A stretch of DNA of 9,514 nt. Source: a virus (Duplodnaviria > Heunggongvirae > Uroviricota > Caudoviricetes). Location of the stretch: the IMG/VR virus record IMGVR_UViG_2711768021_000003; one strand, given 5' to 3'. The translations under genes and the position numbers were made by a program. Positions 1,588 to 9,514 of the stretch are shown one piece after another (the first letter of the stretch is position 1; each line of letters opens with the position of its first letter). The notes under the pieces were generated by a model. The model searched no databases, was not told where the DNA came from, and worked only from the letters and a program-made list of their open reading frames with translations.

Positions 1588-1841
1588 ACAACCAGACAAT
1601 GACTTTTACCTCTGAACAATTGCGTAAACACGCGCAGGAAATGTTGCGACAGGCGGAACAACTGGAAAAAACAGGTGTAACAAAAGATGCCATTCGTCGG
1701 GATATGGTGCCAGCGCTCAGGGAACTGATGCAGGCGAAACATCGCGCACAAAAAGCGGTGGATGAGCTCGTTGATTGTGTGGCAGAGCTGGAAACCAAAG
1801 TTGGAAAGTTTGAAAAAATGGTGCAGGAGGTGCTGCGCTGA
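1584..1841 (+). CDS. Hypothetical small phage protein, predicted helical/coiled-coil, nin-region equivalent
   Basis: ORF overlaps the helicase stop by 4 nt. Start is either TTG 1584 (GGAG at 1572-1575, 8 nt spacing) or ATG 1599. Charged, heptad-like sequence (QAEQLEKT...AVDELVDCVAELETKVGKFEKMV). No family recognised. Confidence 0.5.
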   Translation: MNNQTMTFTSEQLRKHAQEMLRQAEQLEKTGVTKDAIRRDMVPALRELMQAKHRAQKAVDELVDCVAELETKVGKFEKMVQEVLR

Positions 1842-2212
1842 TGCGCCATGAGTTTATTTTACCTTATCCGCCGACGGTGAATACTTACTGGCGACGTCGT
1901 GGCAGCACATATTTTGTATCAAAAGTTGGTGAGCGTTATCGCCGTGATGTGACGCTAATTGTTCGCCAGCAGCGGCTGAAATTAAACCTGTCCGGAAGGC
2001 TGGCGATAAAGATTATTGCAGAGCCACCGGATAAGCGCCGTCGTGACCTGGACAATATCCTGAAAGCACCACTGGATGCGCTGACGCATGCCGGACTACT
2101 CATAGACGACGAGCAGTTTGATGAAATCAATATTGTGCGCGGTCAGCTCGTTCCTGGTGGGCGACTGGGCGTGAAGATTTATGAAATCACAGGTGATAAC
2201 GATGGCGCGTGA
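1841..2212 (+). CDS. rusA: Holliday junction resolvase RusA (crossover junction endodeoxyribonuclease)
   Basis: ATG 1841 overlaps the upstream stop (ATGA). About 120 aa with '[14 protein letters not shown]', '[19 protein letters not shown]' and 'LIDDEQ' matching the acidic catalytic core of the RusA family. Position after replication genes and before Q is typical for lambdoid phages. Confidence 0.85.
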
Positions 2213-2588
2213 TATTCAGCAGGTTATGGAACGGTGGGGGGCTTGGGCTGCAAACACTCATGAAGATGTATCCTGGGCGTCGATCGCTGCTGGTTTTAAA
2301 GGGTTAATTCCGTCGAAAGTGAAATCACGCCCTCAGTGTTCTGATGATGATGCAATGATAATTTGTGGCTGTATGGCCCGGTTGAACAAGAAAAATCAGG
2401 ATTTGCACGATTTGCTGGTGGATTATTACGTAGGTGGAATGACTTTTATGAGTCTGGCACGGAAACATGGGTGTTCGGATACCTGTATTGGCAAGCGCCT
2501 GCAGAAAGCGGAAGGGGTTATTGATGGCATGTTGATGATGCTTGATATCCGGCTGGAGATGGACAGATACGTAGAACGAATTATGTAG
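2202..2588 (+). CDS. Q: Late-gene antiterminator Q (phage 82 / QuuD-like family)
   Basis: ATG 2202 with AGGTGA 7 nt upstream, overlapping the rusA 3' end by 11 nt. '[18 protein letters not shown]...[53 protein letters not shown]' resembles the small Q antiterminators of E. coli lambdoid prophages, with a Cys-rich putative metal site. A sigma70-like promoter follows immediately downstream. The track start at 2181 lacks an RBS. Confidence 0.75.
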
Positions 2589-2925: not shown

Positions 2926-3068
2926 GTGTCCAGAATTCTTGGTTTATGACCGGGTGTGCGGCTAATACAATACCAGCAATGGAAATACGCCCGCCGACTT
3001 TCGACGGTTTTGAGCGCCCGGTCACCCTCTCAAAAGGGGTAAATCAAAATATTCGAAAGGACATGTCT

Positions 3069-3821: not shown

Positions 3822-3898
3822 GGCCCTTTAGCTCAGTTGGTCAGAGCGAGCGACTCATAATCGCCAGGTCGCTGGTTCAAGTCCAGCAAGGGCCACCA
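3822..3898 (+). tRNA. tRNA-Ile2 (anticodon CAT, lysidine type) or tRNA-Met
   Basis: Manual cloverleaf: acceptor GGCCCTT/AAGGGCC, D-arm TAGCTCAGTTGGTCAGAGC, anticodon loop CTCATAA (CAT at 3856-3858), T-arm GCTGGTTCAAGTCCAGC, 3' ACCA. Strongly resembles enterobacterial ileX-type tRNA. Confidence 0.85.
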
Positions 3899-3899
3899 A

Positions 3900-3976
3900 C
3901 CACCACTAGCTCATCCGGATAGAGCATCAACCTTCTAAGTTGACGGTGCGAGGTTCGAGTCCTCGGTGGTGGGCCA
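3900..3976 (+). tRNA. tRNA-Arg (anticodon TCT, reads AGA/AGG)
   Basis: Acceptor CCACCAC/GTGGTGG, D-arm TAGCTCATCCGGATAGAGC, anticodon stem TCAAC/GTTGA with loop CTTCTAA (TCT at 3934-3936), T-arm CGAGGTTCGAGTCCTCG, discriminator G, CCA. Confidence 0.8.
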
Positions 3977-3978
3977 GC

Positions 3979-4054
<76 letters not shown>

Positions 4055-4057
4055 TAT

Positions 4058-4132
<75 letters not shown>

Positions 4133-4271: not shown

Positions 4272-4559
4272 NNNNNNNNNNNNNNNNNNNNNNNNNNNNN
4301 NNNNNNNNNNNNNNNNNNNNNNNNNNNNNNNNNNNNNNNNNNNNNNNNNNNNNNNNNNNNNNNNNNNNNNNNNNNNNNNNNNNNNNNNNNNNNNNNNNNN
4401 NNNNNNNNNNNNNNNNNNNNNNNNNNNNNNNNNNNNNNNNNNNNNNNNNNNNNNNNNNNNNNNNNNNNNNNNNNNNNNNNNNNNNNNNNNNNNNNNNNNN
4501 NNNNNNNNNNNNNNNNNNNNNNNNNNNNNNNNNNNNNNNNNNNNNNNNNNNNNNNNNNN
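4272..4559. other. Run of 288 N (masked or unsequenced)
   Basis: Literal n characters. Hides the 5' part of the holin gene and its upstream region. Confidence 1.
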
Positions 4560-4661
4560 ATTGGTGTGCTGGGAAGTCTGCTTCTGGGGCTTCTGACTTA
4601 TCTGACAAATCTGTATTTCAAAATAAGAGAAGACAAGCGTAAGGCTGCGAGAGGTGAATAA
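4560..4661 (+). CDS. S: Holin, class II pinholin (phage 21 S21-like), 3' fragment; 5' end lost in N-run
   Basis: Visible C-terminus '[33 protein letters not shown]' matches the second TMD and charged tail of S21-type pinholins. Stop TAA overlaps the ATG of the downstream SAR endolysin (TAATG). Confidence 0.7.
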
Positions 4662-5022
4662 TGTCGCCATCATTACGCAAGGCTGTTGCAGCTGCTATTG
4701 GTGGTGGGGCTGTTGCTATAGCATCTGTGTTAATCACTGGCCCAGGTGGTAACGATGGTCTGGAAGGTGTCAGCTACATACCATACAAAGATATCATTGG
4801 TGTATGGACTGTATGTCACGGACACACCGGAAAAGACATCATGCTCGGTAAAACGTATACCGAAGCAGAATGCAAAGCCCTCCTGAATAAAGACCTTGCC
4901 ACTGTCGCCAGACAAATTAACCCGTACATCAAAGTCGATATACCGGAAACAACGCGCGGCGCTCTTTACTCGTTCGTTTACAACGTGGGCGCTGGCAATT
5001 TCAGAACATCGACGCTTCTTCG
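4661..5022 (+). CDS. R: SAR endolysin (T4-lysozyme-fold muramidase, phage 21 R21 / P1 Lyz-like); 3' end lost in N-run
   Basis: N-terminal Gly/Ala-rich signal-anchor-release segment '[20 protein letters not shown]'; catalytic E-x8-D-x5-T triad in '[16 protein letters not shown]'; '[15 protein letters not shown]' core. The track ORF 4661..5320 is an artefact of reading the N-run in frame into Rz. Confidence 0.8.
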
Positions 5023-5143
5023 NNNNNNNNNNNNNNNNNNNNNNNNNNNNNNNNNNNNNNNNNNNNNNNNNNNNNNNNNNNNNNNNNNNNNNNNNNNNNN
5101 NNNNNNNNNNNNNNNNNNNNNNNNNNNNNNNNNNNNNNNNNNN
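5023..5143. other. Run of 121 N (masked or unsequenced)
   Basis: Literal n characters. Hides the endolysin 3' end and the Rz/Rz1 5' ends. Confidence 1.
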
Positions 5144-5320
5144 GCAGTCTGTCAGTCAGTGCGTGAAGCCACCACCGCCTCCGGCGTGGATAATGCAACC
5201 AGCCCCCGACTGGCAGACACCGCTGAACGGGATTATTTCACCCTCAGAGAGCGGCTGATGACGATGCAGATGCAACTGGAAGGGGCACAGGAGTATATCC
5301 GCACTCAGTGCATTAAGTAG
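5144..5320 (+). CDS. Rz: Rz i-spanin, C-terminal part (5' end lost in N-run)
   Basis: 'AVCQSVREATTASGVDNATSPRLADTAERDYFTLRERLMTMQMQLEGAQEYIRTQC' is nearly identical to the C-terminal third of lambda Rz. Confidence 0.75.
   Translation, partial: AVCQSVREATTASGVDNATSPRLADTAERDYFTLRERLMTMQMQLEGAQEYIRTQCIK
5145..5258 (+). CDS. Rz1: Rz1 o-spanin, C-terminal part, embedded in +1 frame of Rz
   Basis: 'QSVSQCVKPPPPPAWIMQPAPDWQTPLNGIISPSESG' matches the proline-rich mature region of lambda Rz1. The lipobox and signal peptide are in the N-run. Confidence 0.7.
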   Translation, partial: QSVSQCVKPPPPPAWIMQPAPDWQTPLNGIISPSESG

Positions 5321-5834: not shown

Positions 5835-6329
5835 ATGGCTGGAACGGCGGGGCGTTCCGGGCGTCGCCCCAAGCCAACGGCGCGCAAGGCGCTGGCCGGA
5901 AACCCCGGCAAGCGAGCCCTGAACAAAGATGAACCTGTTTTTACGCCCATCAAAGGTGTTGAGCCACCAGAGTGGTTCGCTGAAGAAGATCTCCCTCTCG
6001 CCACGATCATGTGGCAACTGACAACCAAAGAACTCTGCGGTCAGGGCCTGCTGTGCGTGACTGACCTGGCGGTACTTGAGCGGTGGTGCGTGGCCTATGA
6101 GTTCTGGCGACGTGCCGTGAAAAATATTGCCATACAGGGCAACACCATCACCGGTGCAATGGGCGGCAGGGTCAAAAATCCGGAGCTGACCGCCAAAAAA
6201 GAACAGGAGTCCGAGATGAGCAGCACGGGGGCAATGCTCGGACTCGACCCCAGCAGCCGCCAGCGTCTGATTGGCCTGGCGGGGCAGAAGAAAGCCACTA
6301 ACCCGTTTCTGAAAATTATCGAATCATGA
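5835..6329 (+). CDS. Terminase small subunit (P27 family, HK97 gp1-like)
   Basis: ATG 5835 with AGGAG 8 nt upstream (the track GTG at 5826 is too close to the RBS). N-terminal '[26 protein letters not shown]' is the signature of P27-family small terminases. Stop overlaps the TerL start (ATGA). Confidence 0.8.
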
Positions 6330-8059
6330 GCCGGAAATCTTACCCCAACGTAAATGCTGCAAATCAGTATGCCCGGGATGTCGTGCGCGGAAAGATTGTT
6401 GCCTGCCAGTTTGTGATTCAGGCCTGCCAGCGCCATCTTGATGACCTGATGGCGGAAAAAAGTAAGTCGTTTCGTTACCGCTTCGACAAGGACCTGGCTG
6501 AACGGGCCGCGAAATTTATTCAGCTGTTGCCGCACACCAAGGGGGAGTGGGCATTCAAACGGATGCCCATCACGCTGGAGCCGTGGCAGCTATTTGTGAT
6601 CTGCTGTGCGTTTGGCTGGGTCAATAAAGGCACCCGGTTGCGCCGCTTCCGGGAGGTGTACACCGAAATCCCCCGTAAGAACGGCAAATCAGCAATCTCT
6701 GCCGGTGTTGCCCTGTATTGTTTTGCCTGTGATAACGAGTTTGGCGCGGAAGTGTATTCCGGTGCCACGACAGAGAAACAGGCGTGGGAAGTCTTTCGCC
6801 CGGCGCGACTGATGTGTAAACGCACACCCATGCTGACGGAAGCGTTCGGGATTGAGGTTAACGCCTCAAACATGAACCGTCCGGAGGATGGCGCGCGGTT
6901 TGAACCGCTGATCGGCAACCCAGGTGATGGTTCATCACCCCACTGTGCCGTGGTTGATGAATATCACGAGCATGCCACCGATGCGCTTTATACCACAATG
7001 CTTACCGGGATGGGGGCGCGACGTCAGCCACTGATGTGGGCCATCACCACCGCCGGGTACAACATTGAGGGGCCGTGCTACGACAAGCGGCGGGAAGTCA
7101 TCGAGATGCTCAACGGCTCGGTGCCTAACGATGAACTGTTCGGGATCATCTATACCGTTGATGAAGGTGACGACTGGACCGGCCCGCAGGTGCTGGAAAA
7201 AGCCAATCCAAATATTGGCGTGTCGGTTTATCGCGAATTTTTGTTAAGTCAGCAGCAGCGTGCGAAAAATAACGCCCGTCTGGCAAACGTCTTTAAAACA
7301 AAACACCTCAATATCTGGGTGTCGGCGCGTTCGGCGTATTTCAACTTGGTGAGCTGGCAGAGCTGCGAGGATAAATCACTGACCCTTGAGCAGTTCGAGG
7401 GGCAGCCGTGCATTCTGGCCTTTGACCTGGCGCGTAAGCTGGATATGAACAGCATGGCGCGACTTTATACCCGCGAGATTGACGGTAAAACGCATTACTA
7501 CAGTGTGGCCCCGCGTTTCTGGGTACCGTATGACACGGTGTACAGCGTCGAGAAAAATGAAGATCGACGGACAGCCGAACGCTTTCAGAAATGGGTGGAA
7601 ATGGGCGTTCTGACCGTTACCGATGGTGCGGAGGTGGATTATCGCTACATCCTCGAGGAGGCCAAAGCGGCGAACAAAATCAGCCCGGTCAGTGAGTCAC
7701 CCATCGACCCCTTCGGGGCGACCGGGTTGTCACATGACCTTGCTGATGAAGACCTGAATCCCGTCACTATCGTCCAGAACTTCACCAATATGTCCGATCC
7801 GATGAAAGAGCTGGAAGCAGCGATTGAATCGGGACGTTTTCATCATGACGGCAATCCCATCATGACCTGGTGTATCGGCAACGTGGTCGGCAAAAACATG
7901 CCGGGTAACGATGATGTGGTGAAACCCGTCAAAGAGCAGGCGGAAAACAAAATCGATGGTGCAGTTGCGCTGATTATGGCGGTTGGCAGAGCCATGCTGT
8001 ACGAGAAAGAAGACACGCTGTCTGACCACATTGAGTCCTACGGGATCCGCTCGCTTTAA
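6326..8059 (+). CDS. Terminase large subunit (Terminase_1 family, HK97 gp2-like)
   Basis: 577-aa ORF translationally coupled to TerS. ATPase-like N-terminal half ([16 protein letters not shown], Walker-B-like CAVVDEYHE) and nuclease-like C-terminal half ([12 protein letters not shown]). Confidence 0.9.
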
Positions 8060-8070
8060 CTGAGGTAATT

Positions 8071-8253
8071 ATGATCATGCTGATTCTCGCGCCTCTGGTG
8101 GGCGTGCTGGGTGCGCTTTTGCTGGCGTATGGTGCCTGGCTGATTTATCCCCCGGCGGGTTTTGTTGTTGCCGGGGCGCTGTGCCTGTTCTGGTCGTGGC
8201 TGGTGGCGCGATATCTCGACCGTACACGGCAGTCTGTCGGCGGAGGTAAATAG
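8071..8253 (+). CDS. Small hydrophobic protein, two predicted transmembrane helices, unknown function
   Basis: ATG 8071 with GAGG 5 nt upstream, 11 nt after the TerL stop. '[60 protein letters not shown]' is 60 aa with two hydrophobic segments and a charged tail. Stop TAG overlaps a GTG that has a strong GGAGG RBS (candidate portal start). Confidence 0.45.
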
Positions 8254-9409
8254 TGTTCTTTTCGGGATTATTTCAACGAAAAAGCGATGTGCCGGTGACC
8301 ACGCCAGCAGAACTGCTGATGCTATCGGGCTGTCATACGACACCTATACCGGAAAGCGGATCAGTAGCCAGCGGGCCATGCGCCTGACGGCGGTCTATTC
8401 TTGCGTCAGGGTGCTGGCAGAGTCTGTTGGTATGCTGCCCTGCAGTCTCTACAAAATCAGCGGTACCCTGAAAACACGGGCGGTGGATGAACGACTGCAT
8501 AAGTTGGTTTCGGCAAAACCTAATGGCTACATGACACCGCAGGAATTCTGGGAGCTGGTTATTGTCTGCCTGTGTCTACGGGGGAATTTTTACGCCTACA
8601 AGGTAAAGGCACTGGGAGAAGTGGTGGAGCTTCTTCCGATAGATCCGGGCTGTGTGGAACCGAAGCTGAACAGCCAGTGGCAGCCGGTTTATCAGGTGAC
8701 GTTTCCGGATGGTTCCGTGGATGTGTTGACCCAGAATGAAATCTGGCATGTGCGCACCCTGACGCTGGATGGACTTGTCGGGCTGAATCCCATTGCGTAT
8801 GCGCGTGAGGCCATTTCACTGGCAGCGGCAACCGAGGAGCACGGTGCCAGGTTGTTTAGTAATGGTGCGGTGACATCCGGTGTGTTGCGTACGGAACAAA
8901 AGCTCACGCCGGATGCTTACGAGCGTCTGAAGAAAGATTTTGAGGAGTGTCACACGGGGCTTGGCAATGCTCACCGCCCGATGATTCTGGAAATGGGGCT
9001 GGACTGGAAGTCGATGGCGCTGAACGCCGAGGACAGTCAGTTCCTGGAAACCCGCAAGTTTCAGCTGGAAGAAATCTGTCGTCTGTTCCGGGTGCCGTTG
9101 CACATGGTGCAGAACACCGATCGCGCCACCTTCAACAATATCGAAGAGCTGGGGCTGGGATTTATCAACTATTCACTGGTGCCGTATCTGACCCGCATCG
9201 AACAGCGGATCAACACCGGACTGGTACGAAAAAGTAAGCAGGGCGTTTATTACGCCAAATTTAACGCCGGGGCGTTACTGCGCGGGGATATGAAGTCCCG
9301 TTTTGAAGCCTACGCCACCGGGATCAACTGGGGAATTTACTCTTCCAATGACTGCCGCGACCTGGAAGATATGAATCCGCGTCCCGGTGGTGTAATGCCG
9401 ATCAGTTAA
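8253..9409 (+). CDS. Portal protein (HK97 family) with an apparent -1 frame break near 8327-8330
   Basis: Main ORF (frame of 8162, through 9409) carries portal motifs 'AMRLTAVYSCVRVLAESVGMLP' and 'GLNPIAYAREAISLAAATEEHGARLFSNGAVTSGVL'. The best start is GTG 8253 (GGAGG at 8242-8246) but it is in a different frame that stops at 8385-8387. The two frames join if the GGG run at 8327-8329 is read as GGGG. The unambiguous in-frame part is 8378..9409. Confidence 0.7.
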
Positions 9410-9442
9410 GGATCAGTTGACCGATCCAGTGGCTGTGTAAGA

Positions 9443-9477
9443 ATCCGGAAACGCTCACTTGTTTCCGGATTTTTTTA
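9443..9477 (+). terminator. Rho-independent terminator downstream of the portal gene
   Basis: Perfect 10-bp stem ATCCGGAAAC (9443-9452) / GTTTCCGGAT (9461-9470), 8-nt loop, then TTTTTT (9471-9476). Confidence 0.65.
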
Positions 9478-9514
9478 TGCACATTGGACAGGCTCTTGAT
9501 CTGGTATCCCGTTA

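Follow-up and report, generated by a model that had tools for sequence, protein, structure and literature searches.

What is a 60-codon open reading frame (ORF) doing between the large terminase (TerL) and portal genes of an HK97-type packaging module, and is it a gene at all? The ORF in question occupies positions 8071-8253 of a 9,514-nucleotide (nt) stretch of viral DNA (IMG/VR record IMGVR_UViG_2711768021_000003, Caudoviricetes), and this whole stretch is hereafter referred to as the window. An earlier note, made from the letters alone, had described a small membrane-protein gene inserted between TerL and portal, and had not recognised it as a named gene. The ORF is ymfR, an already annotated and named gene family, and the window copy is nearly identical to described ones. 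We are highly confident of the identity, reality, membrane location and portal coupling of ymfR taken together. The best explanation of the locus as a whole, to which we assign a probability of roughly 0.6, is that ymfR encodes an inner-membrane hairpin, that it is a portal-coupled, fixed resident of its position, and that its product is a membrane-acting accessory of the lytic cycle.

The predicted protein shares 58/60 residues (97% identity) with YmfR of Escherichia coli K-12 (b1150, in the cryptic prophage e14), which has the same length of 60 amino acids (aa), the same position between terminase and portal, and the same one-base stop/start overlap; the two changed residues both lie in a variable tail (TRQS versus TQSS). 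Protein L37 of phage phiP27 is ~98% identical to the window YmfR, and the family phrog_502, named 'membrane protein', matches it over residues 1-55 with an E-value of 2.8e-28; L37, Sb3 of ST64B, SfII_03 and phrog_502 are all equivalents of K-12 YmfR, for which the RefSeq product name is 'IPR020297 domain-containing protein YmfR'. The region is matched in 1,604 of 5,426 complete E. coli genomes, where the Prokaryotic Genome Annotation Pipeline calls the product 'protein YmfR', and in 23 phage records, including phiP27, ST64B and SfI/SfII/SfIV, in which the ORF, L37 and Sb3 included, is usually labelled a membrane protein. As a sequence feature ymfR is thus ordinary, being found in ~30% of complete E. 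coli genomes and in phiP27, ST64B, SfI/II/IV and PY54. Homologous proteins form 166 clusters across the Enterobacterales, almost all of 59-61 aa, and a profile search of 1.84 billion representative proteins returned 421 clusters at E<=1e-3, nearly all of 45-75 aa.

Searches of Pfam and NCBIfam gave no match to YmfR above the gathering score, and the sub-threshold matches to TctB (0.025) and anch_rpt_perm (0.24), which are unrelated membrane families, were rejected as compositional. A sequence search of the PDB found nothing, and a Foldseek comparison of the AlphaFold2 model with BFVD returned only generic helical hairpins, all with E-values above 1. A literature search covering ymfR and small transmembrane proteins encoded at the terminase/portal boundary yielded no functional study, nor any description of how widespread the family is, how strictly it is coupled to the portal gene, how phrog_502 and phrog_7105 (discussed below) are related, or of the missing and wrong annotations of SfV, SfIV, PY54 and the 'W' label. 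The last of these concerns records ON470584, ON470603, ON470580 and PQ793804, which call the ymfR ORF 'head-tail joining protein W'. This looks like a positional mis-annotation after the lambda A-W-B order: YmfR resembles lambda gpW in position only, its gene being, like W, small and flanked by the large terminase (A) and portal (B) genes, whereas gpW is a soluble head-completion protein and YmfR is almost wholly hydrophobic (grand average of hydropathy 1.15) and has no gpW Pfam match. YmfR homologues are unannotated in PY54 (L119, NC_005069; 2301..2492) and in SfIV (NC_022749; ~2300-2483).

The window contains 73 ORFs of at least 40 aa, so an ORF of 60 aa is not in itself unusual and the case for a real gene rests on conservation. 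Next to a real gene, the earlier note had weighed a spurious ORF in GC-rich intergenic DNA, an idea favoured by the shortness of the ORF, the many other ORFs of at least 40 aa and its GC content (61%, against 52% for the window). In codon alignments of 28 diverged loci the Nei-Gojobori ratio of nonsynonymous to synonymous substitution rates (dN/dS) ranges from 0.1 to 0.45 (median 0.33). All 28 loci keep the ymfR frame open, while each of the other five frames, including the one that holds a 95-aa antisense ORF in the window, is broken in 17 to 28 of them. Length and start/stop context are likewise conserved, and homologues number in the hundreds. Residues G11, G14, G21, W23, Y26, G30, G35, C38, L39, W41 and S42 are invariant or nearly so, and in the alignment of distant members three glycines are still invariant and a fourth nearly so. 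By these measures of sequence evolution ymfR is a real gene under purifying selection, as the earlier note had favoured, and a spurious ORF can be given practically no weight.

The features that the earlier note had read from the letters, a good ribosome-binding site, two hydrophobic helices and a short basic tail, were all borne out (Table 1). The motif tgaggtaattATG around the ymfR Shine-Dalgarno sequence is identical in phiP27, E. coli A36 and loci L003-L007, and the loci of Mangrovibacter, Erwinia and Citrobacter retain its GAGG; 11 nt separate the TerL stop codon (TAA, 8057-8059) from the ymfR start. Kyte-Doolittle means are 2.35 for residues 2-25 and 2.0 for residues 30-46, and an AlphaFold2 model built with 26 homologues as input is a helical hairpin (helices 2-25 and 27-57) with a mean predicted local distance difference test score of 73. 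The turn between the helices is nearly invariant as YPPAG, and reads xPAG in distant members. The tail begins with conserved Arg/Lys, continues with a variable middle and ends in Gly-Gly-Lys; apart from this terminal GG[KED] it is the least conserved part of the protein. YmfR would thus be an inner-membrane helical hairpin of 60 residues with both ends probably in the cytoplasm, as suggested by the basic tail and by the N-terminal Lys/Arg of many members, and with the YPPAG turn in the periplasm. Helix 1 was also considered as a cleaved signal peptide with a possible A-Y-G|A site, which is unlikely given its invariant glycines and the lack of a basic n-region in the subgroup to which the window copy belongs.

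Table 1. Features of the ymfR locus in the window, and the corresponding small ORFs of two other phages.
Feature	Coordinates	Strand	Details and basis
Lysis cassette, P21-type holin and Phage_lysozyme	4563-5320		Pfam
Large terminase, TerL	6326..8059	+	Pfam TerL_ATPase (E 8e-26) and TerL_nuclease (E 4e-33), domains 6326-8056
ymfR Shine-Dalgarno, GAGGT	8062..8066	+	4 nt before ATG; read from sequence
ymfR coding sequence	8071..8253	+	ATG start, 60 codons and TAG; ORF list, homology
Transmembrane helix 1, residues 2-25	8074..8145	+	Hydropathy, AlphaFold2 helix 2-25, invariant alignment columns; conserved glycine face G11, G14, G21, plus W23
Turn, Y26-P-P-A-G30	8146..8160	+	Predicted periplasmic (positive-inside rule, inferred)
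Transmembrane helix 2, residues 30-46	8158..8208	+	Hydropathy, invariant columns; conserved G35, C38, L39, W41, S42
Predicted cytoplasmic tail, residues 47-60	8209..8250	+	Net charge +3
Portal Shine-Dalgarno, GGAGG	8242..8246	+	Inside ymfR codons 58-59, 6 nt upstream of GTG
Portal 5' end	8253..8314	+	GTG 8253, start as annotated in phiP27 and E. coli A36
Rest of portal, other frame	8315..9392	+	Pfam Phage_portal 8321-9391, E 2e-107
IS4 element end	9393..9514	.	100% identity with E. coli genomic copies of IS4 (insG)
Small ORF of SfV (NC_003444, L033), phrog_7105	2289..2450		53 aa, two helices, unannotated, between TerL and portal
Small ORF of Ralstonia phage YO020_1 (L133), phrog_7105	2032..2196		Same type as the SfV ORF

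Whether ymfR was inserted into its position or belongs there can be judged from its distribution. The flanking genes are TerL and portal, as the earlier note had proposed, and all of the genome loci located by way of YmfR (30/30) have the order TerL-YmfR-portal, including those with a TerL identity of only 35% (Serratia) or a portal identity of only 38% (Halomonadaceae). An intact 60-aa ymfR, ending on the first base of the portal start codon, is also present in 80/80 IMG/VR contigs picked by their portal alone (88-99% identity), and ymfR occurs in all phage records of the same portal clade. The seven distant representatives of the profile search whose contigs were looked up (7/7) encode the small protein between TerL (PF03354/PF20441) and Phage_portal (PF04860), with overlapping or abutting junctions. 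The conservation of the ORF in relatives that share both neighbours, on which the earlier note had made its gene call depend, is therefore found throughout these sets. The named hosts are all Gamma- or Betaproteobacteria (Klebsiella, Citrobacter, Gilliamella, Pseudomonas, Massilia, Burkholderia, Serratia, Erwinia and Halomonas), and the Burkholderia members include a Burkholderia phage 'Gp3' protein. In the large group of phages that carry ymfR, the head module runs from a P27-family small terminase (TerS) through TerL, portal and protease to an HK97-fold capsid protein.

HK97 and mEp506 lack the gene, their TerL overlapping the portal gene directly, and it is likewise missing from Moraxella Mcat11 and from both Gram-positive relatives that were sampled. 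The statement that HK97-type modules run from terminase to portal with no intervening gene thus holds for HK97 itself, but not for the large proteobacterial clade to which the module of the window belongs. Nor does ymfR behave as the inserted moron that had been suggested. A consensus scan of 7600-8500 found no plus-strand promoter or terminator, although such a scan is not proof of absence, and Rfam gave no match there; the SfII record places a rho-independent terminator within the 5' portion of ymfR, but the scan did not recover one there in the window. The junctions are tight (11 nt and -1 nt), and the gene is invariably present over a very wide clade. With neither transcription signals of its own nor a sporadic presence, ymfR fails two defining features of a moron. 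On these comparisons, it is a permanent occupant of the space between TerL and portal in a large group of phages from Proteobacteria. The lack of its own promoter and terminator also suggests that ymfR is transcribed together with the late packaging and head genes.

Campylobacter phage CJIE4-1 (L134) offers a contrast, in that a MazF toxin gene (1617..2051) fills the TerL/portal gap of its HK97-type module. Here the insertion is genuinely moron-like, in the position that ymfR occupies elsewhere. Disrupted copies of the small ORF were also seen. In Halomonas phage QHHSV-1 (L117; 1999..2200) the reading frame covers only helix 1 (30 aa), with helix 2 following in another frame, and a second copy in Shigella flexneri SFBU0723 (L013; 4001..4216) is frameshifted, leaving a 71-aa chimeric ORF. 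Two records with Gram-positive labels, OR844959.1 ('Enterococcus phage Efm 3-10', 1764 bp) and JAEWTL010000102.1 (L004, 'MAG: Bacillota bacterium'), contain enterobacterial TerL-ymfR-portal DNA that is 96-99% identical to the window, and their Gram-positive attribution looks like contamination or mis-binning.

The ymfR stop codon (TAG, 8251-8253) shares its G with the portal start codon, forming TAGTG, and the portal Shine-Dalgarno sequence is embedded in the last codons of ymfR. Every examined locus with an intact ymfR has such a one-base overlap (TAGTG, TAATG or TGATG), and in the related loci among them a purine-rich GGAGG, GGGGG or GAGG run stands 5-10 nt before the portal start; overlap and embedded Shine-Dalgarno are conserved from the Enterobacterales to the Halomonadaceae, and the junctions of distant members range from an 11-nt overlap to a 3-nt gap. 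The nearly invariant Gly-Gly at the C-terminus (GGK/GGE/GGD) is best read as the protein-level shadow of the portal Shine-Dalgarno that is encoded there. Ribosomes finishing ymfR would terminate on the first base of the portal start, just past the portal Shine-Dalgarno, and this arrangement of overlap and embedded signal indicates that portal synthesis is tied to ymfR translation, in agreement with the translational coupling inferred in the earlier note. Two further ideas about this junction were dropped. A special hydrophobic N-terminus (MFFxGLF) in the portals that follow the ORF was abandoned on finding a similar motif in a Gram-positive portal with no such ORF before it, and co-translational targeting of the mRNA to the membrane was set aside on reasoning only, as a 60-residue protein is almost fully made before its first helix leaves the ribosome.

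Coupling of this kind could in principle be the whole purpose of the ORF, with its translation setting the flow of ribosomes to the portal gene, and so keeping portal output both low and fixed relative to TerL, and the peptide itself of little importance. The overlap and embedded Shine-Dalgarno in every intact ymfR examined would fit such a translational device, as would the many members in which the ymfR start overlaps the TerL stop as well (ATGA), and HK97 couples TerL straight to portal (TGATG) with no ORF in between. A spacer, however, would not be expected to keep invariant Gly, Trp, Cys and Ser residues and a two-helix pattern in 421 clusters, nor a dN/dS of ~0.3 and a length held at 45-75 aa. 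We consider it very improbable that ymfR is mainly such a device.

The alleles that surround ymfR in the window are mosaic. The window TerL DNA is 92-100% identical to that of the ST64B/SfII-type loci L006 and L007 and only 63-82% identical to that of phiP27, and the corresponding TerL protein identities are 98% and only 77%. The portal, in turn, is 94-99% identical to phiP27 over 8319-9118 and 62-97% identical to L006/L007 (62-83% over 8419-8918), before its last 270 bp return to the L006/L007 type. The window thus combines an ST64B/SfII-like TerL with a phiP27-like portal, and the stretch 8020-8219, which includes most of ymfR, is 97-98% identical to phiP27, L006 and L007 alike, so that ymfR looks like a conserved island within a region (6326-9392) where TerL and portal alleles reassort. 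Two other phages mark the module boundaries: phi467 combines the same ymfR and portal with another TerL, and in SfV a TerL 3' end 95% identical to that of the window is followed by another portal and by a small ORF that belongs to phrog_7105 instead. Across locus pairs, rho is 0.69 between YmfR and portal identities and 0.61 between YmfR and TerL identities; both values are descriptive only, and the pairs are non-independent. By these sequence comparisons the inheritance of YmfR appears to follow the portal slightly better than TerL.

The small ORF of SfV and its counterpart in Ralstonia phage YO020_1 belong to phrog_7105, whose members resemble YmfR in having 52-54 aa, two helices with a G-x-x-G...G face, an Arg-rich tail and overlaps with both TerL and portal, and differ from it in lacking the YPPAG turn and the CLxWSW motif and in accompanying a different portal type. 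Such ORFs cross-match phrog_502 at ~6e-6, and an ORF of phage PG1 matches both families (1.4e-12 and 2.4e-9). A direct hhalign comparison of the YmfR and SfV-type alignments is weak (P 0.009, probability 4%), and the link between phrog_502 and phrog_7105 is drawn from the PHROG cross-matches through intermediate sequences rather than from hhalign. In SfV the ATG of the small ORF overlaps the TerL stop, and the annotated portal start (GTG 2392) lies inside the ORF; this start is probably annotated ~50 nt too far upstream.

Conservation within the protein indicates where YmfR might act. The small and aromatic residues that are conserved (G11, G14, G21, W23, G30, G35, C38, W41 and S42) lie inside the helices and turn, and the tail is variable, which suggests that YmfR most likely acts within the bilayer, through tight helix-helix packing with itself or with a host inner-membrane protein. 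As to what such a protein would do, our leading, though tentative, proposal, argued partly by analogy, is that YmfR is a membrane-linked accessory of portal/prohead initiation or of packaging in the lytic cycle. We rank an assembly or packaging role of this kind above a moron function because the gene is inherited with the portal and is never sporadic. The analogy is with T4, the only documented case in which a phage-encoded, membrane-associated factor, gp40, is needed for prohead assembly initiated by the portal protein gp20 at the inner membrane (PMC9958956, PMC3185693). YmfR, too, is a membrane protein, and its synthesis stands in a fixed relation to that of the portal, although the functional parallel is hypothetical and we found no sequence relationship between YmfR and gp40. 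T4 gene 40, moreover, neither lies between TerL and portal nor is coupled to the portal gene in the manner of ymfR.

Several observations weigh against a role in assembly or packaging. The correlation of YmfR with portal identity barely exceeds that with TerL identity, over locus pairs that are non-independent, and the gene is lacking from HK97, mEp506 and the two Gram-positive relatives examined. HK97 proheads assemble with no protein of this kind, so that YmfR cannot be a universal requirement. The cytoplasmic parts of YmfR that could reach portal or terminase are very short and poorly conserved, which argues against direct contact with the portal. According to a review, association of proheads with the membrane has been shown for no phage besides T4 (PMC3185693). 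Finally, ymfR has been used in K-12 as a neutral integration site and its deletion there is reported to have no phenotype (PMC9145139), a result that says little because e14 is defective.

A role in the late lytic cycle unrelated to morphogenesis is an equally tentative alternative, in which YmfR would be a membrane effector acting in lysis timing in the manner of a holin or antiholin, modifying membrane potential, or excluding superinfecting phages during the lytic cycle. Its architecture of two helices, both ends predicted inside and a basic tail is that of class II holins and small exclusion proteins; the likeness to class II holins and pinholins such as phage 21 S (PF04971) extends to the charged C-terminal tail and glycine-rich faces, and conserved glycine faces would suit oligomerisation. 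The restriction of named hosts to Proteobacteria fits an envelope-related role, and PHROGs places phrog_502 in the class 'moron, auxiliary metabolic gene and host takeover'. In contrast to class II holins, YmfR has no match to a Pfam holin family even at E<=10, and its gene lies inside the packaging genes rather than beside an endolysin gene; a P21-type holin and a lysozyme are already encoded in the window, 3.4 kb upstream. PADLOC, whose coverage of superinfection-exclusion proteins is incomplete, gave 0 families at E<=10. The scan for promoters and terminators gave ymfR none of its own, and a gene of the late operon would be silent in the lysogen, the state that gains most from exclusion. 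Accessory genes for exclusion or toxins are, furthermore, typically sporadic and exchangeable, whereas ymfR is invariantly present over a huge clade and tied to TerL and portal. An exclusion factor, toxin or lysis-timing modulator, as proposed in the earlier note, is thus possible, but draws no support from these searches.

Extending the assembly proposal to both families, the phrog_502/phrog_7105 superfamily would be an unrecognised core component of the head and packaging machinery of proteobacterial HK97-like phages with P27-family TerS, its portal-coupled hairpin tying portal/prohead initiation or DNA packaging to the inner membrane; this broader version we regard as rather unlikely. The pattern that calls for explanation is in any case a membrane protein of ~60 residues that hundreds of diverged phage lineages in Gamma- and Betaproteobacteria have kept between terminase and portal, its translation chained to that of the portal. 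If head assembly or packaging were linked to the membrane through YmfR, the standard picture of cytoplasmic HK97-type assembly would change, and if the superfamily reading held, a mode of assembly documented only in T4 (gp20 with gp40) would extend to a very large group of phages. As a membrane effector, alternatively, YmfR would be unusually stable.

The copy of ymfR in the window is itself embedded in a damaged module. Relative to phiP27 and E. coli A36, the portal gene lacks one base at ~8314/8315 (GAACT-GCTG), so that the frame opened by its start codon closes after 44 codons (8253-8387) and the remainder continues in the frame of ORF 8162..9409; this 1-bp deletion reflects either a pseudogene or a sequencing error. 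Homology of the portal to phiP27 stops at ~9392, where the insertion sequence IS4 cuts in ~90 bp before the normal portal 3' end. With its portal gene interrupted by IS4, the prophage of the window is, on the sequence at hand, defective, and its host is probably Escherichia or Shigella. At this particular locus, ymfR is probably an intact but functionless passenger of a decaying prophage, a situation compatible with any of the functions considered above for the family. The deletion and the IS4 insertion in the adjacent portal point this way, as does K-12 e14, which keeps ymfR between a terminase pseudogene (aaaE) and a portal fragment (beeE) and in which its deletion has no phenotype (PMC9145139), and as does the frameshifted ymfR of the second S. 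flexneri copy. Against this, sequencing error could account for the missing portal base, the rest of the prophage lies beyond the window, which breaks off within IS4, and the TerS, TerL, HNH and lysis genes appear intact.

The TerS gene of the window, upstream of TerL, was identified by Pfam Terminase_4. In the lysis region the visible C-terminus of the holin (4563-4658) matches the phage 21 holin S family (PF04971), and runs of N at 4272-4559 (288 bases) and 5023-5143 (121 bases) mask parts of the holin region and of the lysozyme gene. Farther upstream, Rfam matches above the gathering score were obtained for c4-a1b1 (2616-2668), isrK (2629-2705), C4 antisense RNA (2731-2814) and sRNA-Xcc1 (2948-3031), and the interval from the antiterminator Q gene to the lysis genes contains four tRNA genes (3822-4129).

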